A DNA stretch of 64,000 nt, taken from NCBI GenBank assembly GCA_035528115.1, contig DATKZF010000003.1, positions 359,089 to 423,088 on the forward strand. The letters are read 5' to 3'. The notes beneath the pieces were generated by a model that worked only from the letters and a program-made list of their open reading frames with translations, did no database searches and was not told the DNA's origin. The translations under genes and the position numbers were made by a program. Shown one piece after another: positions 2,854-35,209 of this stretch. How positions within the stretch are numbered: position 1 is the stretch's first letter; every line of letters begins with the position of its first letter. The stretch comes from Candidatus Bipolaricaulota bacterium (GTDB lineage: Bacteria > Patescibacteriota > Patescibacteriia > UBA11705 > DATKZF01).

Positions 2854-3451
2854 AAAAGCCAACAACAAACTTCGTCTGAACATGCTGATAATTTTCACTA
2901 TCGGTTATTTAACGATCTTCTCAATTGTTTCGGTGCTAAACCAACGGTATTCATTCCTTTTCTCAGCCGGCCTTATGCTGATTTTTACTTTTCTGGCGCT
3001 CTATCTTTATAAAAAAGCGGGCCTGCCCATTTCCGCCATGACCGCGATGACCTTGATAGCCGCTTTGCATATTTTCGCCGGCAACACGTACATTTACGGC
3101 GCCAGATTGTACGATATCTGGCTGATTGATAAATATCTGAAATTCGATAACTTGGTTCATTTTCTGGGAGGTTTTGTCGCGGTTTACATTATCTTTATTT
3201 TATTGGAGCCATACCTTGATTCAAAAATCAAAGAAAGAAAATTCGTTTTTTCCGTGCTGTTGATTTTAATAGCCGCCGGCATAGGCACGATCAATGAGAT
3301 TTTGGAATTGGGCGCGGTTTTATTCTTAAACGCTTCAACTCTTGTCGGAGATTATTTCAACAACGCTTTTGATTTGCTCTATAATTTTCTGGGAGCGACG
3401 ACCGCCGGACTCTTGGCGATCGGAATGAAAAAAGGCCGCGTTAATAATTGA
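2834..3451 (+). CDS. hypothetical integral membrane protein
   Basis: About six hydrophobic segments. Start overlaps the stop of the upstream gene. No confident family assignment. Confidence 0.4.
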   Translation: MQSSPIKKANNKLRLNMLIIFTIGYLTIFSIVSVLNQRYSFLFSAGLMLIFTFLALYLYKKAGLPISAMTAMTLIAALHIFAGNTYIYGARLYDIWLIDKYLKFDNLVHFLGGFVAVYIIFILLEPYLDSKIKERKFVFSVLLILIAAGIGTINEILELGAVLFLNASTLVGDYFNNAFDLLYNFLGATTAGLLAIGMKKGRVNN

Positions 3452-3514
3452 AACAAATAAAAAACGGAGGAGAATATGCCTCTGTTTTTTTTATTTGTGA
3501 AACACTCATTACAA

Positions 3515-9030: not shown

Positions 9031-10156
9031 AATTTCGATATCCATCAATCATCTTCTCCATTGAAAAATTCCTCGCCGTCTCCAATCCTGCCGCTTTGAA
9101 CTTTTTCGCCAAATCCGGATTATTATAAAGTTTCAAAATCGCTTGCTTCAAATCTTGCACATTGTCCGTTTCAAACAGCAGACCGTTTTCATTGTTTTTG
9201 ATAATTTCCGGCAATCCGCCAACATTGGCCGCGATGACCGGCACCTTGGCCAACATGGCTTCCAAAATCGCAATGCCGAATGCTTCTTTTTTCGAGGGCA
9301 AAACAAACAAATCGAAATCTTCGAGCCACTCGTAAACATTTTCCTGAAAACCAAACAGGACGACACTGTCTTTTATTTTCAATATATCGATCAAGCCTTC
9401 CAAATCCTGCCTGCTCGGCCCTTCGCCGATAATGGTCAAATGAATATCGGGAATTTCCGTTTTCAATTCGCCAATCGCTTTAATCAACAGCCCCAAATTT
9501 TTTTCATGACTCAATCTGCTGATCGAGCACACATTAAAATGCTTTTTTTCAAAGTCCGAATAATTCTTATCAGCCAAATTTTGATAAATGTCTTCCTGAA
9601 AAAACTTTTTCGACAAATCAATACCGTTGTAAATCACCTTGACGTTCTTGACCTTTATTTTTTCCAATTCTTTTTTCACGAATTCTGACACGCAAACGAC
9701 CGTTGCCAGACGCGACCACCATTGATATAAAAATCTGTACGGGTTTTTGGTCAGCCAGCGCTCGATGGACACGTGCTCTTGCCAAATAACCTTATAGCCG
9801 AGCAGTTTGGCCATTGGCGTGATCAAAATTTTCTCGGTCAAAGACAAGCAAAACAAGATTTTGGTTTTATGTTTGATTCTATAATAAACAATAATGGCCA
9901 GCAGGCTTAAAAACGAATAAATGGCGAGGATCGGAAACAAAAAAAGCGCCCAAATCGCCACCGGCTCCACGCCGACCCACCAATATTTTTGCGGCCAATT
10001 TCTTTTTTCGAATTCGGCCGTTAAAACTTTATCCGAGGACATTAAAAAAAAATTGAAATCTTCCTTTTTCAATCTTTCCACCAATTCCAGCGTATACTTT
10101 TCCCCTCCGCCGAATTGGGATTGGTAGGGAAATTTGAGGATTAATATGTTCGACAT
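9023..10156 (-). CDS. glycosyltransferase family 4 (GT-B fold) with N-terminal membrane anchor
   Basis: EAFGIAILEAMLAKVPVIAANVGGLPEII matches the GT4 E-X7-E region. Confidence 0.7.
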   Translation of the reverse strand: MSNILILKFPYQSQFGGGEKYTLELVERLKKEDFNFFLMSSDKVLTAEFEKRNWPQKYWWVGVEPVAIWALFLFPILAIYSFLSLLAIIVYYRIKHKTKILFCLSLTEKILITPMAKLLGYKVIWQEHVSIERWLTKNPYRFLYQWWSRLATVVCVSEFVKKELEKIKVKNVKVIYNGIDLSKKFFQEDIYQNLADKNYSDFEKKHFNVCSISRLSHEKNLGLLIKAIGELKTEIPDIHLTIIGEGPSRQDLEGLIDILKIKDSVVLFGFQENVYEWLEDFDLFVLPSKKEAFGIAILEAMLAKVPVIAANVGGLPEIIKNNENGLLFETDNVQDLKQAILKLYNNPDLAKKFKAAGLETARNFSMEKMIDGYRNFL

Positions 10157-10170
10157 ATTATTTATTTAGC

Positions 10171-10415
10171 TAAGATTTCTCCACTTCACTCGTCGTCGCT
10201 ATGCTCGACTCACTCCGGTCGAAATGACAAAGAGGGATGATATCTTTTTTTTGTCACCTCGAGCGAATCCGAGAGCTCTTTTCCTAATTGACCGTCGTTG
10301 TCATCTCGACCGAAGTCGTCCGAAGCTTTGGCGAAGGATGACGAAGCGGAGAGCTCTTTTCCTAATTAACCATCGTTGTCATCTCGACTGAAATGGAGAG
10401 ATCTTTTCCAAAACC
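10171..10415. mobile_element. MITE-like element E1 with terminal inverted repeats (AAGATTTCTCC ... GGAGAGATCTT) and an internal roughly 48-bp tandem duplication
   Basis: The ends are reverse-complementary. The unit GAGAGCTCTTTTCCTAATTGACCGTCGTTGTCATCTCGACCGAAG repeats about 2.5 times. Related copies are at 10721-10845, 12757-12888 and 13177-13245. Confidence 0.6.
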
Positions 10416-10422
10416 GGCCAGC

Positions 10423-10719
10423 TTAAATGCTTTGGGACAAATCATCCCAATCCGGATTCATTTCCTCAATCAGCCGGATTTTCTTTTCCCTTCTCCATTT
10501 CTTCAATTGCTTTTCCCGCTCAATCGCTTCATTAATATCATTGAAATTTTCAAAATACACCAGTCTGGTGCAATTGTATTTTTTTGTAAAACCTTCAATT
10601 ATTTTATCTTGGTGTTCAGCCACTCTTCTGACCAAATCGTTCGTTACTCCAACGTATAACGTTCTTTTATAGCTTGCCATTATATAAACATGGTAATTGT
10701 TTTCAAACATATGCATCAT
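10423..10719 (-). CDS. GIY-YIG nuclease superfamily protein (YhbQ/UPF0213-like small nuclease)
   Basis: YVYIMASYKRTLYVGVTNDLVRRVAEH matches the GIY...YIG motif. 98 aa. Bracketed on both sides by the MITE-like inverted-repeat elements. Confidence 0.7.
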   Translation of the reverse strand: MMHMFENNYHVYIMASYKRTLYVGVTNDLVRRVAEHQDKIIEGFTKKYNCTRLVYFENFNDINEAIEREKQLKKWRREKKIRLIEEMNPDWDDLSQSI

Positions 10720-10720
10720 T

Positions 10721-10845
10721 TGGAAAAGATTTCTCCACTCCGCTCGTCTTCGCTACGCTCGACTCACTCCGGTCGAAATGACAACGGATGATGTCTTTTC
10801 TTTTGTCATCTCGACCGAAGCGGAGAGATCTTTTCCTAGAAACCC
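10721..10845. mobile_element. MITE-like element E2 (TTGGAAAAGATTTCTCC ... GCGGAGAGATCTTTTCCTA)
   Basis: Terminal inverted repeats about 19 bp. Internal sequence GGTCGAAATGACAA...GTCATCTCGACCGAAG is shared with E1, E3 and E4. Confidence 0.6.
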
Positions 10846-10851
10846 GTATCC

Positions 10852-11280
10852 TCACAATTTCATCTCCGCAATCAACCGCATCAAACTCTCATCAGAAACT
10901 TTATAATCCCCTGTTAAAAATTCCTGCTTGGTCACCCAGCGAAATTCCCTGATATCATCAACCCCGGGATTTTTAGTAATATCAATATTAGTGGAGGTCG
11001 GAATGCAAAGAAAGGTTGAGCAGACCACTTGTCCGCCATCAATTTCCTTGAAAAACCACCAGATGCCGAGCGGCTCTTTGATTTCAACATCAAGAAATAC
11101 TTCCTCTTTAACCTCTCTTCTCAACGCGTCAAAAGGAGACTCCCCGAAATCCACTTTGCCGCCCGGCAAATCCCAAAAATATAAATCATCATTAATGTGC
11201 GCTTTGACTATTAAAAATTTATTGTCTTTTTTTATAAACGCTTTGACACCGGCGATTACCGGTAATGTCTGTTTAGCCAT
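10852..11280 (-). CDS. NUDIX hydrolase
   Basis: Nudix box GGKVDFGESPFDALRREVKEEVFLDV (GX5EX7REUXEEXGU). Confidence 0.75.
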   Translation of the reverse strand: MAKQTLPVIAGVKAFIKKDNKFLIVKAHINDDLYFWDLPGGKVDFGESPFDALRREVKEEVFLDVEIKEPLGIWWFFKEIDGGQVVCSTFLCIPTSTNIDITKNPGVDDIREFRWVTKQEFLTGDYKVSDESLMRLIAEMKL

Positions 11281-11295
11281 ATATTTAATTTTGTT

Positions 11296-12717
11296 TCATG
11301 ACTTCAACGAAACCATCTCCTTCACCGTCTCCTTTTTAATCACCCCAAACACCGCCAACAAAGAAAAATAAACGGCCATGCCGATTAAAATCAGCCAGAT
11401 GACGTTAAGGTCGCGCAAGAAATAAATGACCCCGGCCATAATGCCGGCCGCGACCAAGGATTTGCCGAAATTGACCAGGGACGGAAAAAATTTGACTGCC
11501 CGATAAACCACAATGCCGGTCAAAATCATGATCATGACTTCGGACGCCACGGTGAACGCCGCGGCCGCCCAGTATCCGTATTGCGGAATGAAAACGAAAT
11601 AGCCGATCAAGGCCACGATGGCCGTGGCCAAATAGCCCCAGATCATTTGCTTTTGCTTGTTGACGCCGACAACCGCGTAACCGAACAGCGTGCCGAAAAA
11701 AATGGCGCCGGCCGCGAAAATCAATATTTTTAAAATATCGCCCGAACCCGCGAAATCCGAACCGGCAATCAATGTCATGACTTTTTCTCCAATGACCAAA
11801 CCGCCCAAAACAACGGGCAAGGCCATCATGGCCATGGCGTCAAAAGATATTTGAAGCAAATGCTTGACCCCGTCCAGTTTTTTTTCAATCCAGTCTTTGG
11901 CCAGCAGCGGCAAAATAAGTCCCATGAATAAAGCGGGCAACATGGTTAAAATATCAATCACGCGGTACGCCGCGCCGTACAAGCCCACATCCGCGTTCGG
12001 CCAGTACAAAGACAGGATAACCGTGTCCGTTTTCAAATACAAAAGATTGCAGGAAATGGAAATCGCGATCGGCCAACTCTTCTTCAAAATCCCCAGCCAA
12101 ACATCTTTATCAAAAGTGAATTTTATTTTCACGTATTTTCTCGAAGCCAGATACGAAATCAAAAGGTGCGTGAAGCTGCCCAGCGAGATCATCCAAAAAA
12201 TCAAATAAATATTCGCCTGAAAATACATGGCTGTCGCAATGCCCGCCAACAAAACGATCCTGCCAATAACCTCGGCGATGCTGTAAATGAACATTTTCAA
12301 TTCTTTTTGAAAAACGCTGGCCAAAATATTATTTATCGAAATGAAAAAGAAGGAAAAAACCACAATGGCCACGCCCAGCTTGATTTCCATGGCATACGGG
12401 AAAAACAAAACGACGATCGGCGCCAGAGATAAAAAAATAAACGCGGAAATAACGCGCAAAGTCAGCATGTTGCTCAAGTACTTATCAATATTTATCCCCG
12501 GGTTGCCCACAGTTCTGGTCGCGGTGAGTGACAACCCGAAATCCACGATTATGCCGAAAAACGACAGGAACGCGACTACGGTGATATATTGACCGAAGCC
12601 CTCCGGTCCCAAATACCTGGTCATCAAAGCAACCACAAAAATACCCAGGATCGTGGTGGCGATCTTGCCGATGAATTGAACGATGGTGTTTCTGGCCAAC
12701 TGTTTTGTTAATGACAT
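11296..12717 (-). CDS. polysaccharide biosynthesis protein / Wzx-like flippase (MOP superfamily)
   Basis: 473 aa with about 12-14 TM helices. The overall pattern matches the Polysacc_synt/MATE-like family. Confidence 0.55.
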   Translation of the reverse strand: MSLTKQLARNTIVQFIGKIATTILGIFVVALMTRYLGPEGFGQYITVVAFLSFFGIIVDFGLSLTATRTVGNPGINIDKYLSNMLTLRVISAFIFLSLAPIVVLFFPYAMEIKLGVAIVVFSFFFISINNILASVFQKELKMFIYSIAEVIGRIVLLAGIATAMYFQANIYLIFWMISLGSFTHLLISYLASRKYVKIKFTFDKDVWLGILKKSWPIAISISCNLLYLKTDTVILSLYWPNADVGLYGAAYRVIDILTMLPALFMGLILPLLAKDWIEKKLDGVKHLLQISFDAMAMMALPVVLGGLVIGEKVMTLIAGSDFAGSGDILKILIFAAGAIFFGTLFGYAVVGVNKQKQMIWGYLATAIVALIGYFVFIPQYGYWAAAAFTVASEVMIMILTGIVVYRAVKFFPSLVNFGKSLVAAGIMAGVIYFLRDLNVIWLILIGMAVYFSLLAVFGVIKKETVKEMVSLKS

Positions 12718-12756
12718 ATAAATTTTGAAATAAGGAATCTATGAAAAGCAATAAGA

Positions 12757-12888
12757 AGCGTCTGCAAAAAAGACCGTCATCTCGACCCCTCGACTGTGCT
12801 CGGGCAGGCCGAAGCGGAGAGATCTTTTCCTAACTGCCCGTCGTTGTCATCTCGACCGAAGCGGAGAGATCTTTTCCTAACAAAATAT
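12757..12888. mobile_element. MITE-like element E3 (two tandem copies of GTCATCTCGACCGAAGCGGAGAGATCTTTTCCTAAC)
   Basis: Same family as 10171-10415. The first unit is interrupted by a 22-nt insertion. Confidence 0.6.
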
Positions 12889-13176
12889 TTAAATACTCTG
12901 TGATAAATCATCCCAACACCCATTCATTGATTCAATCAATTGAATCTTCTTTTCTCTTCTCCACTTTTTTAATTGCTTTTCCCTATCAATAGCTTCATTT
13001 ATATCATTGAAAAGTTCATAATACACAAGACTGGCGCAATTATACTTTTTCGTAAAACCTTCAAAAACTTTATCCTTGTGCTCACTGACTCTTCTCTTCA
13101 AATCATTTGTTACCCCAACATATAATGTTCTTTTAAAACTTGCCATTATATAAACATAATAATCATTTTCAAACAT
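12889..13176 (-). CDS. GIY-YIG nuclease superfamily protein (paralog of 10423..10719)
   Basis: YVYIMASFKRTLYVGVTNDLKRRVSEH. About 75% identical to the first copy. Bracketed by GCGGAGAAATCTTTTCCAA upstream and TTAGGAAAAGATCTCTCCGC downstream. Confidence 0.7.
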   Translation of the reverse strand: MFENDYYVYIMASFKRTLYVGVTNDLKRRVSEHKDKVFEGFTKKYNCASLVYYELFNDINEAIDREKQLKKWRREKKIQLIESMNGCWDDLSQSI

Positions 13177-13245
13177 ATTCTTATTTGGAAAAGATTTCTC
13201 CGCTCCTCCTCACAAGCTCGTCGTCGGTCGAAATGACATGAATAA
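13177..13245. mobile_element. MITE-like element E4 (truncated left half)
   Basis: TTGGAAAAGATTTCTCCGCTCC...GGTCGAAATGACA matches the left arm of E2 and then diverges. Confidence 0.5.
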
Positions 13246-14529: not shown

Positions 14530-15924
14530 ATGACTCAAGAAAATGAACAACTCTGGCAAACAGTGCTGGGGGAATTGGAGCTCAATTTGAGCAAGGCCAG
14601 CTTCACCACCTGGTTCAAGAACACCTTTATTCTCGACAACGAGGATGGCAGGATCATTATCGGCGTGCCCAACACTTTTTCTCAGGCATGGCTGAAACAG
14701 AAATATCATAATGATATTTTTAAGACATTGCAGAATCTGACAGGGAAAAGAATCAAAGACGTCAATTATAAAGTTCAGAATAAAAAAGACTTCAGACCCA
14801 CGGAAAAAATTCCGGTTCCCGTGGTCGAAGGGGTCGTTCGCGAAGAACTCATTTCCTCTCAGCCGACCACGCCTCTTCTCGAACAAAATAGCGGCGCGTA
14901 TCAAAACATTAACCGCAATTACGCTTTTGTCAGTTTTATAGTTGGTAAAAACAATGAATTGGCGCACGCCGCGGCCAAGGCCGTGGCCGAAAATCCGGGA
15001 TTCACTTATAATCCCCTTTTTATTTACGGCGGGGTCGGACTGGGAAAAACCCATCTGCTTCAATCCATTGGCAATGAAATCCTCATTAAAAACAGCCAAA
15101 AAAAGATTTTATACGTCACTTGCGAACAATTCACCAATGATTTTATCAATGGTATTTCTTCGGGCAATTCCGGTAAATTCCAATCTTATTATCGCGGTCC
15201 GGACGTGCTTTTAATAGACGACATTCAATTTTTAACCGGCAAAGAAGGCACGCAAGAAGCTTTCTTTCATACGTTCAATGATCTGCATCAACGAAACAAG
15301 CAAATAGTTATCACTTCGGATCGGCCGCCGAAAGCCATTGCCACTCTCGAGGACAGGCTTCTTTCAAGGTTTGAGTGGGGCATGATTGCCGATATTTCCC
15401 AGCCGGACATGGAAACGAGAATGGCTATTTTGGAGAAAAAATGCCTTGAAAAAAACTTTAATCTGAATAGGGACATTGTTCAATACATCACCCAAAACAT
15501 TCAAAACAACGTTCGGGAACTCGAAGGAGCTCTCAATAAGATTATCGCTTATCATCAATTGAATAAAATAGAACCGACGCTGGAAAACATTAAAAAAATA
15601 CTATTCTCTTTAAGCAATGCCGGCGGACAAAAAAACTCAGTCACTCCGCGGCACTTGATTGAAACCGTGGGTAAATTTTACGAAATAGGCCTTGAGGACA
15701 TTACAGGCAAGTGCAGACAAAAACGATTGGCCTTTCCCAGACAAATAATAATGTATTTGATGAGAGAAGAACTCAGGGAGTCTTATCCTTCAATCGGCCA
15801 AGAATTGGGAGGCAGGGATCATACCACGGCCATGCACGCGCACAGTAAAATTTTAAACTTGCTCGAAACGGATGAAAAGCTCAGACAAGAAATAAACCTG
15901 CTCAAACAACTGCTGTATCAATAA
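14530..15924 (+). CDS. dnaA: chromosomal replication initiator protein DnaA
   Basis: Walker A GGVGLGKTHLL, the LLIDDIQFL sensor, and the C-terminal DNA-binding helix DHTTAMHAHSKI. Confidence 0.95.
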   Translation: MTQENEQLWQTVLGELELNLSKASFTTWFKNTFILDNEDGRIIIGVPNTFSQAWLKQKYHNDIFKTLQNLTGKRIKDVNYKVQNKKDFRPTEKIPVPVVEGVVREELISSQPTTPLLEQNSGAYQNINRNYAFVSFIVGKNNELAHAAAKAVAENPGFTYNPLFIYGGVGLGKTHLLQSIGNEILIKNSQKKILYVTCEQFTNDFINGISSGNSGKFQSYYRGPDVLLIDDIQFLTGKEGTQEAFFHTFNDLHQRNKQIVITSDRPPKAIATLEDRLLSRFEWGMIADISQPDMETRMAILEKKCLEKNFNLNRDIVQYITQNIQNNVRELEGALNKIIAYHQLNKIEPTLENIKKILFSLSNAGGQKNSVTPRHLIETVGKFYEIGLEDITGKCRQKRLAFPRQIIMYLMREELRESYPSIGQELGGRDHTTAMHAHSKILNLLETDEKLRQEINLLKQLLYQ

Positions 15925-30578: not shown

Positions 30579-30840
30579 TTAAAATTTGGTTGGATGTCCA
30601 TATTTGATCAAATTTTCTTTTTTAATTTTGCTCCAACGTTTTATTTGGTTTTCTCGCTGCATAGCTTCTCTTAATGTATTATATTCTTCAAAGTAAATGA
30701 TTTTTACAGGTCTTCTATATTTTGTATATTTTGCGCCTTTGCCTTCATTGTGTCTTTTTTCTCTTGCTTGAATGTTTAAGCGAGATCCGGTATATAGGGA
30801 GTTATCATTACATCGCGCTATATACATGAAGTGCTTCATT
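30579..30840 (-). CDS. GIY-YIG nuclease superfamily protein (third paralog)
   Basis: MKHFMYIARCNDNSLYTGSRLNIQAREKRHNEG...REAMQRENQIKRW. ORF 30579..31082 trimmed to the ATG at 30838-30840. The upstream part is GC-rich repeat sequence, not coding. Confidence 0.6.
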
Positions 30841-31157
30841 GGGATAAGTAAAATTTTTTTAAGTGCCCCTCGACTTCGCTCGGGACATTCGACTCGTCTG
30901 GTGGTGGAACACCATGAGCGAGTCCGAGATTTCGAGGACGAGTCGAATGGTGGAGCCGAGTAGAGGAAGTTAGAACTTTTTTCGTCGCCGGAGCGCGCAA
31001 TACTGCCGATCCTGGCCGGGTACCTGCAGAGTACCACGACCGCACTGCTCGAGGATGTGCGAGAATATGACCTCGAGCACATGGCGAGAGTTCAGCATCC
31101 GAAGCAGCTCTGTCCAAACTCCTTGCCAGTTCGTAATTGGCCACGACGCAGTATGTA

Positions 31158-31186
31158 TTGACAGCAGATCCTATTAGTGCTAGGAT
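31158..31186 (+). promoter_or_regulatory. sigma70-like promoter (TTGACA, 17 nt, TAGGAT) inside the island
   Basis: TTGACA at 31158-31163. The -10 is imperfect. Confidence 0.3.
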
Positions 31187-31262
31187 ACCATATCCAGCCG
31201 CATCTTTCCCTCCCTTGCGTGCCCACCGAATTCCGGCAGGCAGACATCAGAGGGGAAGGGGG

Positions 31263-31514
31263 ATGGCTATGGGTCTTGCAAAGCATTTGCTACTCTGCGT
31301 AACGCTATTCCTAGCGTTTATGGCATTTTGGTATCTAACGATGGAAGGGTGGGCTAACGGCCAAGAAGGAGTCCAGTCGTGTGGTGGTGGATGCGGACGA
31401 ATTCTGTTTCTTCTGGAGGTCCTCTTGGCACAGACAGGCTCACTTTTGACGATGTGCATACTGCACTGGAGTGGACTGCCTCGTGGCAAGAGGCGAGATT
31501 CTCAGCAGTCCTAG
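31263..31514 (+). CDS. hypothetical small membrane protein (island cargo)
   Basis: SD GAAGGGGGA before the ATG. One or two hydrophobic helices and a CGGGCG motif. Trimmed from ORF 31137..31514. Confidence 0.3.
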   Translation: MAMGLAKHLLLCVTLFLAFMAFWYLTMEGWANGQEGVQSCGGGCGRILFLLEVLLAQTGSLLTMCILHWSGLPRGKRRDSQQS

Positions 31515-31856
31515 TTCCGAAGTTGTTCTGGCGGAACCGATCATCCGTGTTCCGCCTTTTTGTTTTCCCGCAAGAAACTCATGCGGCTTGATGCAATAGA
31601 TGACTCTCGGGTCATCGAACAGATGGGTCGGAAACGCCATTCCGACCCATTTCCATTGAACAGCGCTCATCGACAGCGAAGAAGACCGTCAATTCTTGCG
31701 CCGTCGTAGCCCTGCACGTAGTCGGACCCAATCACAGCGAACGGCAAACTGAGGTTGTCGGACCCGAGGATCCTTGATAGTCGTCGCGCCGACTCAGGAT
31801 CGCGCTCCACGTCGCGGCGACGATAGAATTGGAGCACGGTTGCCCTTCGTCCGCAA

Positions 31857-32360
31857 CTACGCGGAAATGTCTGCCAATTCCAATGACATGCTCGCCGCAA
31901 GATCGCCTGGACTGAATCTCATGCCACAGTACTCATCGCCACCGGCTCCGGTGACCAGCGCTCTCCGAAGAACGTTCCTATCAATGATCCTCCGATCACA
32001 AGACGATACAGCCACCGGCGGGACTCCACCAATACGAAACTGGGTCACCGACTCGATCTGCTGGGGCGTGGCGAATCGAAGTTTCTTGACGCCGACCAGT
32101 TCCGCGACCCTGCGAACGTCCAGTCGGTCAGATCCTAGTATTATGCAAGCGATGAATACATCCTCCCTTGGAGCATGCAAGACGAGTGTCTTGATGATGT
32201 TTTCCGATGCGGTTTCGAGGGCGGCAGAGGCCTGCGAGGTCGTCTTTCCAGACTGCTCGTGCATCATGAACTGGGCCCTCAGACCTACGCAACTTGCCAG
32301 TCTCTTCGCGCGGTCGATGGCTCCGGTGTCCAACTGGCGCTCCTTTCCAATCAGGTTGGC
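31857..32360 (-). CDS. YbaK/ProX-like aminoacyl-tRNA deacylase domain protein (island cargo)
   Basis: IKTLVLHAP...RLDVRRVAELVGVKKLRFATPQQIESVTQFRIGGVPPVA parallels the YbaK KTLV...GGVSP pattern. The 5' end is uncertain: no in-frame ATG at the expected position, so a GTG/TTG start is possible. The ORF-track entry extends to 32642. Confidence 0.45.
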   Translation of the reverse strand, partial: ANLIGKERQLDTGAIDRAKRLASCVGLRAQFMMHEQSGKTTSQASAALETASENIIKTLVLHAPREDVFIACIILGSDRLDVRRVAELVGVKKLRFATPQQIESVTQFRIGGVPPVAVSSCDRRIIDRNVLRRALVTGAGGDEYCGMRFSPGDLAASMSLELADISA

Positions 32361-32934
32361 GTGACAGACTTTGGGCGCACGTCTGAACGGTGGTAGGGGC
32401 GTGACGGACGGGGAGGTCGTGCTTGCACCCACAGCGGCACCCTCGAGGAACGAGGTCAGCGATTGGCCTGTGCCATGCCTCACCTGGCGTTGGGAACATG
32501 TCCGGCCGTCCGTTTCCGCGGGCACGCGGTGTACTCCTCTGCTGGTGTTGTTCATACTACATGCTTGGCCGCCGGTCGTCTTGGCCGCCGGCATTTGTGT
32601 TTCACTCATGCTAATTGTACGGAGATTGCGCATGCTTGTCAACCAGGCATCTCACTGAATTCCTCAAGCCGGCCTGCGTGGGTTCAGCGCAAACGGGGCC
32701 GTTGACAGCCTTCCAGTTCGCTGCTACGAAGACCACAGAGATCTCTGCGCCCGTGCAAAATGGATGGCCCGGTAGCTGCAGGATCGAACTGACGCCCGTC
32801 TTCACGACCTCTCGGGTCTTCCGTTCGCAACGGCCTCGCTCGGTCGCACCGGCCACGCGGAGCGAATGAGACAAGGTCGCAACCATCGCGACGGCATAAG
32901 TGTAGAATATATATACTACGTGAAGATAGATGTT

Positions 32935-32980
32935 AGAGCGAGAGAGATAGACACCTAGGAATGTCTATCTCTCTCGCTCT
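32935..32980. repeat. perfect 19-bp-arm palindrome AGAGCGAGAGAGATAGACA-cctaggaa-TGTCTATCTCTCTCGCTCT
   Basis: Arms at 32935-32953 and 32962-32980 are exact reverse complements. The 8-nt spacer contains CCTAGG. It lies about 350 bp upstream of the serine recombinase gene. Confidence 0.85.
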
Positions 32981-32985
32981 CTATC

Positions 32986-33297
32986 TTGAGTACTCTTGGA
33001 CGAGCCGTGTGCGACCGGGACCGCCTGCCGCTGCATGCTTTCGGTGTCTCCGCCACCCCCTGCCCGGACCAACCCAGGCGCGATACGCTTGTGGTGTTCA
33101 ACTACATGCCATTGACACAAGATGACATCGAGGATCTCAAGGGGCTGCTCAGGGCCGAGTACGGCGAGGAGGTGCCGCACGACGAGGCCTGGGACGTTGG
33201 CCTTTCTCTAGTCGAGCTGTGTCGAGTCGCTCTCCGGCCAGCCCCCGCGGCAAGGGAGTCAGACCCGACTGTGGATAACTCGCAGCTTGCCAAATAG
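32986..33297 (+). CDS. hypothetical small acidic protein upstream of the recombinase (possible accessory/directionality factor)
   Basis: ORF in GC-rich DNA. The segment MPLTQDDIEDLKGLLRAEYGEEVPHDEAWDVGLSLVEL looks protein-like. Low confidence because GC-rich DNA yields many spurious ORFs. Confidence 0.25.
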   Translation: MSTLGRAVCDRDRLPLHAFGVSATPCPDQPRRDTLVVFNYMPLTQDDIEDLKGLLRAEYGEEVPHDEAWDVGLSLVELCRVALRPAPAARESDPTVDNSQLAK

Positions 33298-33337
33298 CCT
33301 GGCCAGCTCTACGATCCACAATGAACGCTCGCCACCT

Positions 33338-34954
33338 ATGAAGCATTGCTATATTTACGCTAGAAAATCGTCGGAGTCCGAGGACCGACAGGTTCTGTCC
33401 ATCGACTCGCAGGTCAGTGAGCTCGAGCAGCTGGCCGTCCGGCTGGGACTGCCGGTCACCCGGGTGTTTTCGGAGTCGAAGTCCGCCAAGACTCCCGGGA
33501 GGCCGGTTTTCACCGACATGCTAGAACGTCTTCGTAATCCAGAGGGGAGCGTGGTGCTGTGTTGGAAACTCGATCGGCTGGCCCGAAACCCGCTTGATGG
33601 CGGGGCAGTGATTTGGGCGGTCGAGGAGCGCCAGATCGGGGAGATCGTCACTCCGGGTCGGACCTTCCGCAACACCGCCGACGACAAGTTCTGGATGCAA
33701 CTCGAATTCGGGATGGCCAAGAAGTACGTGGACGACTTGTCTGACAACATCAAGCGCGGAAACAGGGCCAAGCTCCAGCGCGGCCAGATCCCGGGGCAGG
33801 TCCCCCTCGGCTACACCAAGGACCCCTGCACAGGCGACACGATCCCCGATCCGGAACGGTTCGAGTTGGTTCGGCGCATTTGGCAGCGGCTTGTTGATGG
33901 CCACCGGCCGGCAGAGATCCTGAGGGTCGCCTCGAGCGACTGGGGTCTGCGAACGCGAGGTTCCAAGAGGACCGCGAGCGGGCCGCTATCGCCGTCGTAC
34001 TTCTACCGGTTGCTCTCGAATCCGTTTTACGCCGGCGTGGTTCAGCGTGCGGGCCAGGTCTACGTCGGTGCCCACCAGGCGATGGTCAGCCAACATGAGT
34101 TCGACCTGGCCCAGAGGATGTTGGCGGGCAGGTCCAACTCGAGATCTCAGCGCCACGAGCACACCTACGCCGGGCTACTGCGCTGCGGGGTGTGTGGCCG
34201 CATGTTCACCGGAGAGAGCCACACCAACCGCTACGGATCCACGTACGTGTACTACCGGTGCACTCGAAAGCGGCTGGGTAGCAGGGTGTGCCCCCAGCCC
34301 TACGTGCCCGAGAAGGTCATCGACGAGCAGGTGCTCGACTACCTCGGAAGGCTCTCAGTGCCGAGGCAGTTTGTGGACTGGGCCTGCAAGCGCCTCGAGC
34401 GCCTCGCAGCAGAGGATCAAGCGACCGAGCAGGTGGCGCAGTCGTCGATCGAGAAGGGCCTCGCTGCGGCCCAACGCAAACTCGAGAACCTGACGCAGCT
34501 GCGATTGTCCGAGATGATTGGTGACGAAGAATTCGTACTAGAGCGAGCCAGACTGCTGGACGAGGTCGCCGGTTTCAAGGCCCGCCTGGCCGCGCCCTCG
34601 ACCACGGGTCCCGCGTGGCTGCAGCCCACGAAGGAGGCGCTCGCCCTCGCCTCAAGGGCCGAAAATCTGTATCGCAGTGGACTGAAGGACGACAAACGGA
34701 CCATCCTGCGGGCCATCGGGTCGAACTTCTTCATCAGGGACCGGATTGTGCTAATCCAAGCCAAGAAACCGTTTCGCATTCTGGCCGCCGCCCGCGATTC
34801 CTCCGAGCCCGAGCCACCGCGGGTCGAACCCCGGGATTTTGGCTCAGCCAAACAAAAAAACGAGCCATCGAGTGGTCGTTTTCTCCTGTGGTGGACCCTA
34901 AGGGATTCGAACCCTTGGCCTCCTCCATGCCATGGAGGCGCTCTAGCCAACTGA
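33338..34954 (+). CDS. large serine recombinase (resolvase/invertase catalytic domain, recombinase domain and zinc-ribbon)
   Basis: N-terminal YIYARKSSESEDRQVLSIDSQ carries the catalytic Ser motif. The central region matches the recombinase domain. Zinc ribbon CGVCGRMFTG...YYRCTRKRLGSRVCPQP. Start trimmed to the ATG at 33338. The 3' end overlaps tRNA-Ala, so the true stop is uncertain. Confidence 0.85.
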   Translation: MKHCYIYARKSSESEDRQVLSIDSQVSELEQLAVRLGLPVTRVFSESKSAKTPGRPVFTDMLERLRNPEGSVVLCWKLDRLARNPLDGGAVIWAVEERQIGEIVTPGRTFRNTADDKFWMQLEFGMAKKYVDDLSDNIKRGNRAKLQRGQIPGQVPLGYTKDPCTGDTIPDPERFELVRRIWQRLVDGHRPAEILRVASSDWGLRTRGSKRTASGPLSPSYFYRLLSNPFYAGVVQRAGQVYVGAHQAMVSQHEFDLAQRMLAGRSNSRSQRHEHTYAGLLRCGVCGRMFTGESHTNRYGSTYVYYRCTRKRLGSRVCPQPYVPEKVIDEQVLDYLGRLSVPRQFVDWACKRLERLAAEDQATEQVAQSSIEKGLAAAQRKLENLTQLRLSEMIGDEEFVLERARLLDEVAGFKARLAAPSTTGPAWLQPTKEALALASRAENLYRSGLKDDKRTILRAIGSNFFIRDRIVLIQAKKPFRILAAARDSSEPEPPRVEPRDFGSAKQKNEPSSGRFLLWWTLRDSNPWPPPCHGGALAN

Positions 34955-34965
34955 GCTAAGGGCCC
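34889..34965 (-). tRNA. tRNA-Ala (anticodon GGC), G3:U70, CCA encoded
   Basis: Reverse complement GGGCCCTTAGCTCAGTTGGCTAGAGCGCCTCCATGGCATGGAGGAGGCCAAGGGTTCGAATCCCTTAGGGTCCACCA. Confidence 0.85.
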
Positions 34966-34988
34966 TTGGTTTGGGAATTGGAAACTGA

Positions 34989-35063
34989 TGGTGGGCGCAG
35001 GAGGACTCGAACCTCCAACCAATGGCTTAAGAGGCCACTGCTCTACCATTGAGCTATGCGCCC
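34989..35063 (-). tRNA. tRNA-Lys (anticodon CTT), CCA encoded
   Basis: Reverse complement GGGCGCATAGCTCAATGGTAGAGCAGTGGCCTCTTAAGCCATTGGTTGGAGGTTCGAGTCCTCCTGCGCCCACCA. Confidence 0.8.
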
Positions 35064-35068
35064 GAGAC

Positions 35069-35145
35069 TGGTGCAGCCGGAAGGATTTGAACCCTCAACC
35101 CCTTGGTCCGAAGCCAAGTGCTCTATCCAGTTGAGCTACGACTGC
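35069..35145 (-). tRNA. tRNA-Arg (anticodon TCG), CCA encoded
   Basis: Reverse complement GCAGTCGTAGCTCAACTGGATAGAGCACTTGGCTTCGGACCAAGGGGTTGAGGGTTCAAATCCTTCCGGCTGCACCA. Confidence 0.75.
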
Positions 35146-35151
35146 ATTAGA

Positions 35152-35209
35152 AATAAACCTTGCCTGTCCGCCGAAGCTCCGAGCATAGCGAGGAGCGAAG
35201 GCGGAAGCT
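35152..35209. repeat. GC-rich insert (family shared with 17880-17945) flanked by a 16-nt direct repeat AGCTACGACTGCATTA that duplicates the tRNA-Arg 5' end
   Basis: Direct repeats at 35135-35150 and 35207-35222. Insert core CTTGCCTGTCCGCCGAAGCTCCGAGCATAGCGAGGAGCGAAGGCGG resembles GCTCCGACGAGCGGAGCGAGGAGGAGCGAAGGC next to tRNA-Gly. Confidence 0.55.

Follow-up and report, generated by a model that had tools for sequence, protein, structure and literature searches.

A 64,000-nt stretch of contig DATKZF010000003.1 (hereafter the window) carries two short genes for GIY-YIG nucleases that are each bracketed by inverted repeats, which raises the question of what kind of unit a small nuclease and its surrounding repeats make up. 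The original prediction, made from the letters of the window, had suggested a small mobile cassette or a repeat-driven duplication. We have compared the genes, the repeats and their neighbourhood with a characterized nuclease family, with homologous loci, with metagenome matches and with syntenic relatives, and conclude that the locus very probably consists of two paralogous cassettes of the Ssn system and its Ssn-related motifs (SRM) (Chenal et al., Nat Commun 2025, PMC11893778), that is, of a known system and not of a new kind of element. The host is probably a small-genome bacterium of the Patescibacteria/candidate phyla radiation (CPR).

The nuclease genes and the repeats around them

SsnA of Neisseria meningitidis is a 94-aa single-domain GIY-YIG protein (CDD cd10448) that binds its repeat, the Neisseria NTS (CGTCATTCCCGCGMAVGCGGGAATCYRG), only when it is single-stranded and cleaves the strand a few nucleotides upstream of the repeat, being inactive on duplex DNA, RNA and the complementary strand (PMC11893778). 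For binding, the C directly after the palindrome matters most, and for cleavage the three nucleotides before the palindrome (GTC); the loop need not have a particular sequence and may be extended, and each of the substitutions Y6A, Y17A and E64A abolishes cleavage (PMC11893778). Single-strand-specific cleavage has been shown for four Ssn homologues, SRMs flank ssnA in many phyla, and deletion of ssnA leads to about five-fold more transformation with NTS-bearing DNA (PMC11893778). The corresponding genes in the window, named here ssn-1 and ssn-2, are as follows.

ssn-1, open reading frame (ORF) 10423-10719, minus strand: 98 aa as an ORF, with a likely start at the ATG at 10710 that gives 95 aa
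ssn-2, 12889-13176, minus strand: single-domain GIY-YIG protein of 95 aa

The start of ssn-1 was moved to 10710 by alignment with homologues. Both ORFs match the Pfam family GIY-YIG (PF01541, E about 1e-15), which spans residues 6-78 of 95 and is the sole Pfam domain in either protein, and this bears out the prediction of two minus-strand GIY-YIG paralogues at these positions; paralogy likewise stands, at an identity slightly higher than the predicted figure of about 75% (82% for the proteins and 80% for the DNA, over 300 nt). No further NCBIfam family scored above its own cut-off for either protein. Residues Y9, Y19 and E66 of ssn-2 align with the catalytic Y6, Y17 and E64 of SsnA and are invariant in the homologue alignment. 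When the PDB was searched by sequence, no Ssn structure was found and the nearest solved structures were UPF0213 proteins (1zg2 and 1ywl, E = 2.6e-5). A promoter-like match within both ORFs falls on the codons that specify the conserved YVYIM motif.

Membership of the Ssn family was published with a criterion of blastp E < 1e-10 and coverage >= 75% (PMC11893778), and we tested homology against the orthologous locus of Neisseria gonorrhoeae instead of N. meningitidis CAX49033.1. A tblastn search of a plasmid collection with ssn-2 gave matches in two N. gonorrhoeae chromosomes, at one place in each, and the better of these (52.9% identity, 88% coverage, E = 7e-21) falls within the published limits. 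The gonococcal locus has canonical NTS copies beside it and its translation from V5 places Y6, Y17, E64 and the end of the protein at residue 94; since the published length and residue numbering are thereby reproduced, with NTS alongside, we take the locus to be the SsnA ortholog. In pairwise comparison with this protein ssn-1 is 54% and ssn-2 53% identical (E about 2e-31), with the catalytic residues aligned. Both gonococcal chromosomes are filed as plasmids in that collection, and in one of the loci (L214, NZ_CP119142.1 1880519-1883173) the ssnA frame has no in-frame ATG, an ATG at 1194 being out of frame.

The two genes of the window are surrounded by nine copies of one oriented unit of 33-64 nt that starts with TGTCAT and ends with GGAGARATCTTTTCC. 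The short unit is 33 nt (TGTCATCTCGACCGAAGCGGAGAGATCTTTTCC) and its four copies, S1 to S4, are all on the plus strand; the long units, of 52-64 nt, have extra sequence in the loop and occur on the minus (L1, L3, L5) and plus (L2, L4) strands. In a local alignment of the two regions the homologous stretch opens precisely with the outer TGTCAT of the upstream unit (at 10783 in one region and 13238 in the other) and extends across the gene to take in the short and long units downstream. We designate these stretches cassette 1 (10299-10783) and cassette 2 (12775-13238). In each, a sense SRM directly precedes the gene and one or two antisense SRMs directly follow it, and extra SRM units with no gene lie at 10170-10284 and 10804-10836.

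L1, 10170-10229, minus strand: long-loop unit, reading TGTCATTTCGACCGG...GTGGAGAAATCTTAGC on the minus strand, just upstream of the start codon of a GT4 glycosyltransferase gene, with no ssn gene behind it
S1, 10252-10284, plus strand: degenerate unit (TGTCACCTCGAGCGAATCCGAGAGCTCTTTTCC), in a doublet with L1, 5' ends facing
L2, 10299-10362, plus strand: long-loop unit with a closing-stem mismatch (GAGCT versus GAGAT), at the outer downstream end of cassette 1
S2, 10377-10409, plus strand: short unit (TGTCATCTCGACTGAAATGGAGAGATCTTTTCC), antisense to ssn-1 and directly downstream of it
L3, 10722-10783, minus strand: long-loop unit, sense, directly upstream of ssn-1
S3, 10804-10836, plus strand: short unit, in a doublet with L3
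L4, 12775-12830, plus strand: long-loop unit (CGTCATCTCGACC...GGAGAGATCTTTTCC), at the outer downstream end of cassette 2
S4, 12845-12877, plus strand: short unit, antisense to ssn-2 and directly downstream of it
L5, 13187-13238, minus strand: long-loop unit, sense, directly upstream of ssn-2 and 9 nt from the yidD stop codon

The inverted repeats that had been predicted to bracket each gene are real and far exceed chance. Their arms measure 28 nt around ssn-1 (10385-10412 and 10719-10746, 82% complementary) and 24 nt around ssn-2 (12860-12883 and 13181-13204, 88% complementary), and in both cases the arms are the inner ends of the longer 33-64-nt units. With up to two mismatches GGAGAGATCTTTTCC occurs eight times in the window, where 0.16 copies are expected, and TGTCATYTCGACYG nine times, where 1.6 are expected; all these copies lie within 10170-13238. 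The internal tandem units of 36-48 bp that had been described outside the genes do form repeated arrays, and are the same unit again at 47- and 78-nt spacing. The determinants GTC-AT...AT-C are kept in seven of the nine units, S1 and L2 being the degenerate ones. In this subtype the stem is interrupted (ATYTC-GA-CCG ... CGG-A-GARAT) and loops reach about 35 nt. The description of the repeats as MITE-like did not hold, as the units are single hairpins of 27-64 nt, and neither direct repeats nor a target-site duplication were identified at the cassette ends.

Two further observations concern the ends of the cassettes. Among the window's two cassettes and those of loci L081, L211, L083 and L004, the upstream hairpin has the stem ATTTC/GAAAT and the nearest downstream hairpin the stem ATCTC/GAGAT in six of eight cassettes of the subtype, and the arrangement is never reversed. 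In addition, 10153-10250 repeats 10707-10804 over 98 nt at 80% identity. L1 and a short leader (AAATAAATAATATGT) stand before the start codon of the GT4 gene in the position that L3 and L5, each with a leader, take before those of the ssn genes; it may be that an SRM and its leader were stranded ahead of an unrelated gene here, or were recruited by it.

Gene and repeat beyond the window

The protein family is very large, with at least 8,000 candidates in our homologue search. From these we took 80 loci of species-representative genomes and computed flank statistics on 76-78 of them; the sample covers Proteobacteria, Chloroflexota, Bacteroidota, Spirochaetota, Nitrospirota, Actinomycetota and several CPR groups, and homologues across distant phyla are still 52-66% identical to the window protein. 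A recurrent architecture was seen in the flanks, with TGTCAT-stem-loop-stem-ATCC upstream and its mirror, GGAT-...-ATGACA, downstream, the stem sequence varying by genome. GTCAT lies within 150 nt upstream in 54/76 loci (71%) and ATGAC within 150 nt downstream in 53/76 (70%), as against 11% and 16% in control windows, and alignment of the upstream with the reverse-complemented downstream flank scored above the 95th percentile of random positions in 47/76 loci. The density of perfect 7-bp stems that close directly behind GTC is 2.6 per kb up to 200 nt from the gene and 0.21 per kb farther away; these stems comprise 20 distinct arm sequences, are followed by C after the 3' arm in 73/79 cases and are directed toward the gene in 65/79. 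The published SRM search motif, HGTCWYN(0-2)YYVSBRHN(0-5)WNVSBRGN(0-2)RNCYNB, is found within 200 nt of the gene in 27/78 loci and is 38-fold enriched beside it. The exact 27-nt Neisseria NTS consensus is present in ten of the 80 loci, among them Saccharibacteria, Uhrbacteria and another Patescibacteria genome, and in nine of the ten a copy lies no more than 110 nt from the gene. The predicted pairing of nuclease and repeats is thus borne out as an association across phyla, and homologues bind such repeats and cut beside them (PMC11893778). In another metagenomic genome (L083, 4001-6757) two divergent ssn genes flank alaS, each with its own repeat type (ATTTCGAC...GGAGAAAT and ATTCCCGA...TCGGGAAT), an arrangement that points to more than one cognate pair of enzyme and repeat within a single genome.

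The repeat subtype of the window was also sought in metagenomes with the pattern TGTCATYTCGAC-N(5-35)-GGAGARATCT, in which Y and R were left free. The repeat counts that follow are among the matches listed (80 loci), none of which comes from the window's own genome. At least 67 distinct sequences were informative at the free pair, which was C-G in 20, T-A in 46, C-A in one and T-G in none; these counts refer to sequences and not to independent events. This distribution argues that the hairpin stem is maintained by compensatory change. Units are 27-56 nt long with a continuous range of loop lengths, the longer loops often forming stems of their own, and such continuity fits the published tolerance for loop extension (PMC11893778). 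The subtype stands beside many unrelated genes, on contigs of 27-65% GC. Only three of 96 copies lie within 150 nt of a GIY-YIG gene, while 22 are too near a contig end to judge and 71 are solo. The idea that the repeats might always pair with such an ORF is therefore not upheld, 71 of the 96 having no such gene within that distance; the gene nearly always has the repeat and the repeat mostly stands alone, as in Neisseria.

Several results weigh against assignment of the locus to the Ssn/SRM system. The published degenerate motif has no match in the window, and no repeat copies lie away from the ssn genes within its 64 kb. As single-stranded DNA, S3 and S4 do reach the expected fold, (((((..(((...))).))))), at -4.5 kcal/mol (z about -0.7 to -0.95), but these hairpins are thermodynamically weak, with energies no better than those of shuffled sequence, and the long units fail to form the closing stem expected of them. 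In the gonococcal locus the NTS copies closest to the gene face away from it and not toward it, unlike those of most other loci, and the activity of ssn-1 and ssn-2 on this repeat subtype is a prediction drawn from homologues. Because folding energies do not beat shuffles, we base the hairpin on covariation. The published motif misses the window repeats because the stem of the subtype is interrupted and its loops are longer, and a strict finder of our own (GTCA followed by at least six contiguous pairs) missed the window's own units because of the interrupted stems. The motif serves for searching and does not define the family, and we regard its failure as a limit of the pattern that does not exclude the locus from the Ssn family; the window repeat is a distinct subtype.

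History and setting of the two cassettes

By the Nei-Gojobori method the two ssn genes differ by dN (nonsynonymous) = 0.108 and dS (synonymous) = 1.50, the latter saturated, giving dN/dS = 0.07, which indicates that both have long been under purifying selection. The suggested repeat-driven duplication holds in so far as the genes are paralogues whose homology extends from the outer end of the upstream repeat; it was not recent, given a dS of about 1.5. Despite this saturation S3 and S4 are identical at 36 of 36 positions (10803-10838 and 12844-12879), so that the repeats must be constrained or homogenized.

The two cassettes enclose a Nudix and flippase block, as had been predicted:

Nudix hydrolase gene, 10852-11280, minus strand: Pfam match, between the cassettes
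Polysacc_synt flippase gene, 11296-12717, minus strand: Pfam match, between the cassettes

The window comes from a contig of 762,837 bp in a MAG that NCBI lists under Bipolaricaulota. Flippase orthologues that are 69-72% identical are found on Patescibacteria contigs, and we compared four syntenic relatives (L081, L207, L209 and L211; about 70% protein identity). The order dnaA, then rpmH-rnpA-yidD-flippase, is common to all of them. In the window the minimum of the cumulative GC skew adjoins dnaA (14530-15924), from which rpmH-rnpA-yidD diverge, and a probable replication origin lies 1.3-4 kb from the ssn cassettes. On either side of the flippase gene the genomes differ as follows, the second interval given for each being that between the flippase and a Wzy-type gene.

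Window: yidD/flippase spacer of 530 nt, holding cassette 2; second interval with the Nudix and GT4 genes
L081: spacer of 17 nt, empty; second interval with a small unannotated ORF only
L209: spacer of 118 nt, AT-rich, with no cassette; second interval with an AAA_18 protein gene and a small ORF
L207: spacer of 534 nt (2964-3499), holding a decaying PD-(D/E)XK_3 gene (PF13366, E = 5.6e-13); second interval with M23 peptidase and GDSL lipase genes
L211: spacer of 329 nt (992-1322), holding a shorter, more decayed copy of the PD-(D/E)XK_3 cassette; second interval with an M23 peptidase gene

The PD-(D/E)XK_3 cassette is bounded by inverted repeats of 17-18 nt (TGAGTCTACTAGATTAC and GTAATCTCGTAGAATCA) that abut both neighbouring genes, and is a second kind of small-nuclease and inverted-repeat cassette, located at the site of ssn-2. 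Downstream of the flippase block, where the window has cassette 1, an SRM-ssn-SRM arrangement of the window subtype is present in L081 and L211; in L207 the downstream SRMs and the 3' leader remain and the gene is gone, and L209 has neither SRM nor ssn there. The Nudix gene is absent from all four relatives, and each genome examined has its own set of genes in the interval from the flippase to the Wzy-type gene. From these comparisons the position of cassette 1 is probably ancestral to the clade, and cassette 2 appears to have been gained specifically in this lineage, at an intergenic site where other small-nuclease cassettes are found as well. The synteny thus offers circumstantial support for mobility of the cassettes, or at least for their turnover; the relatives are too divergent for junctions or target duplications to be defined. 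A composite transposon carrying the Nudix and flippase genes as cargo was considered and rejected: since the flippase keeps its place by yidD in relatives without cassette 2, it is resident and not cargo.

Proposed activity, alternatives and related systems

We propose that each Ssn enzyme of about 95 aa would recognize its cognate SRM only in single-stranded DNA, binding the stem and the following C and requiring the preceding GTC, and would nick the recognized strand a few nucleotides 5' of the TGTCAT that begins the repeat. Such strand specificity of ssn-1 and ssn-2 is inferred from the published enzymology of the four characterized homologues. Owing to the orientation of the SRMs, the predicted cut sites fall just outside the cassette on each strand. 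By analogy with Neisseria, the likely role would be to trim single-stranded DNA, incoming or replicative, or to limit its recombination at SRM-marked junctions; the setting would be a variable cell-envelope glycan locus near the origin, and the enzymes might possibly serve repeat maintenance too.

Compatible with the Ssn/SRM assignment, SRM-ssn-SRM might in addition be an autonomous mobile element resembling an insertion sequence (IS) and seeding solo repeats as RAYT proteins do with REP sequences. Nicks made by the nuclease in single-stranded DNA, at the outer end of each hairpin, would let the cassette be copied or moved to other intergenic sites, and the second copy in the window would have arisen in this way. 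Mobilization of the cassette by its nuclease has already been raised as a hypothesis by the authors who described the family, who liken NTS-ssnA-NTS to insertion sequences and REP-RAYT and propose domestication (PMC11893778). Several of our observations accord with it: the two cassettes are homologous from precisely the outer TGTCAT of the upstream SRM onward; among relatives the yidD/flippase site is empty, filled or occupied by a PD-(D/E)XK_3 cassette, and the site downstream of the flippase holds ssn, its remnants or nothing, depending on the genome; even between very distant phyla homologues keep 55-65% identity; one and the same repeat core is found on contigs of 27-65% GC; and the unlike upstream and downstream hairpins of six of the eight subtype cassettes recall the ends of IS200/IS605. 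However, deletion would explain the pattern of presence and absence equally well, neither a target-site duplication nor an empty and filled pair at the nucleotide level was found among the relatives of about 70% identity, and the copies are old (dS about 1.5). When the 80 cassettes were compared all against all, a single orthologous pair emerged and no duplicates of recent date; a search of 50,697 phage records gave no homologue, and the plasmid matches are mostly megaplasmids or mislabelled chromosomes. To our knowledge, strand-transfer activity is known for no nuclease of 95 aa, which also speaks against autonomous mobility. On balance we consider an autonomous element unlikely. A more specific form, in which the cassette would be a minimal element that propagates itself by a new class of mechanism, nicked just outside its ends on each strand, copied by host replication or repair into other intergenic sites and shedding solo hairpins, seems doubtful to us; that the window would record one such event, at a yidD/flippase hotspot shared with PD-(D/E)XK_3 cassettes, is a tentative suggestion to be held with the same reserve.

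Several tests speak against each of the three other explanations that we considered. The intergenic position of the hairpins at gene ends, and the occurrence of the same subtype beside many unrelated genes in metagenomes, might suggest ordinary terminators or regulatory hairpins at the RNA level, unlinked to the nuclease. We regard this as very improbable, since a terminator scan picks up none of the units, no unit is followed by a T-run, the stems are weak and Rfam finds nothing on the units, and since units stand both upstream and downstream of the gene in fixed orientation, are 12- to 38-fold enriched beside ssn homologues and resemble sequences whose RNA form is not bound by the characterized homologue (PMC11893778). 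A plain segmental duplication of a gene and its flanks, with the repeats as passive by-products, would account for paralogues 2.5 kb apart with similar flanks; it too has very little in its favour once the 36/36 identity of S3 and S4 is set against the dS of about 1.5 between the genes, and given that the same architecture recurs in unrelated phyla with compensatory stem changes. The original prediction had also pointed to homing enzymes. GIY-YIG is the catalytic domain of many homing endonucleases, and free-standing enzymes of the I-TevI type, which cut a double-stranded target and spread by repair copying, could on that ground, and in view of the two copies in one genome, be envisaged. The analogy fails in that the proteins have 95 aa and a single domain with no DNA-binding module, score 16.4 bits against the group-I-intron endonuclease model TIGR01453 (cut-off 56) and have no homologue in the same phage records; the Rfam gathering scan of the window returned tRNAs only, with neither an intron nor another RNA family in the region, and the characterized homologue does not cut double-stranded DNA (PMC11893778). 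We therefore consider homing endonucleases exceedingly unlikely here.

Placed among known systems, the locus agrees with Ssn/SRM (PMC11893778) in its single-domain GIY-YIG protein (about 94 aa there), the retained Tyr/Tyr/Glu, the oriented bracketing hairpins with GTC and C, the solo repeats elsewhere and the proximity of repeats to cell-surface genes. It differs in its interrupted stem and long loops, in having two old cassettes 2.5 kb apart, in its small-genome and probably Patescibacteria host, in showing no dispersed copies within 64 kb and in the direction of the gene-nearest repeats, which is toward the gene here and away from it in the gonococcus. REP/BIME-RAYT systems likewise combine one small nuclease-type gene with inverted, dispersed hairpin repeats on both sides, and with doublets and arrays, but RAYT is an HUH/Y1 transposase whereas Ssn is a GIY-YIG protein with no known covalent-intermediate or strand-transfer chemistry; membership of the REP-RAYT class (REPtron) was rejected on this ground, and the architecture alone is analogous. 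IS200/IS605 elements are similar in having subterminal hairpins that are read as single-stranded DNA and differ between the left and right ends, and in cutting at some distance from the hairpin, but the ssn cassette measures about 470 nt and contains neither TnpA nor TnpB, and its transposition is hypothetical. Homing endonucleases of the I-TevI type share the catalytic domain and, unlike ssn, are multi-domain, double-strand-cutting and intron- or phage-encoded. UPF0213/YhbQ proteins (PDB 1zg2, 1ywl) are of similar size with a single GIY-YIG domain and form a separate subfamily.

The window has a third small GIY-YIG gene (30579-30839, minus strand; 86 aa when read from the ATG at 30839), which belongs to the UPF0213/YhbQ type and matches PDB 1zg2 at E = 1.5e-15, where the ssn proteins match such structures weakly; its product is 26% identical to SsnA, and no SRMs bracket the gene. 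About 25 nt upstream of it, at the edge of a G+C-rich island (30900-35200; 55-65% G+C, against a window average of 44%), there is a degenerate SRM-like sequence (30865-30886, reading GTCCCGAGCGAAGTCGAGGGGC on the strand of the gene) with no downstream partner. The island holds an ORF for a 555-aa large serine recombinase (33287-34954, plus strand; Resolvase, Recombinase and Zn_ribbon_recom domains), whose 3' end overlaps the first of three clustered tRNA genes (34892-35145), and is probably an integrated mobile element; an Rfam scan by E-value over 30.4-33.5 kb gave no match.

The Ssn family was described in 2025, in a report that leaves Patescibacteria unmentioned (PMC11893778), and the present locus extends it to a probable Patescibacteria host with two long-maintained paralogues. 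As the repeat subtype escapes the published motif, Ssn-associated repeats are probably under-counted. The family has been proposed as a source of programmable single-strand DNA cutters, and the locus supplies it with further natural pairs of enzyme and site, in both short and long-loop versions. Lastly, the set of syntenic genomes, in which the same sites are empty, filled with ssn, left with remnants or occupied by another nuclease cassette, lets the mobility of such cassettes be examined.

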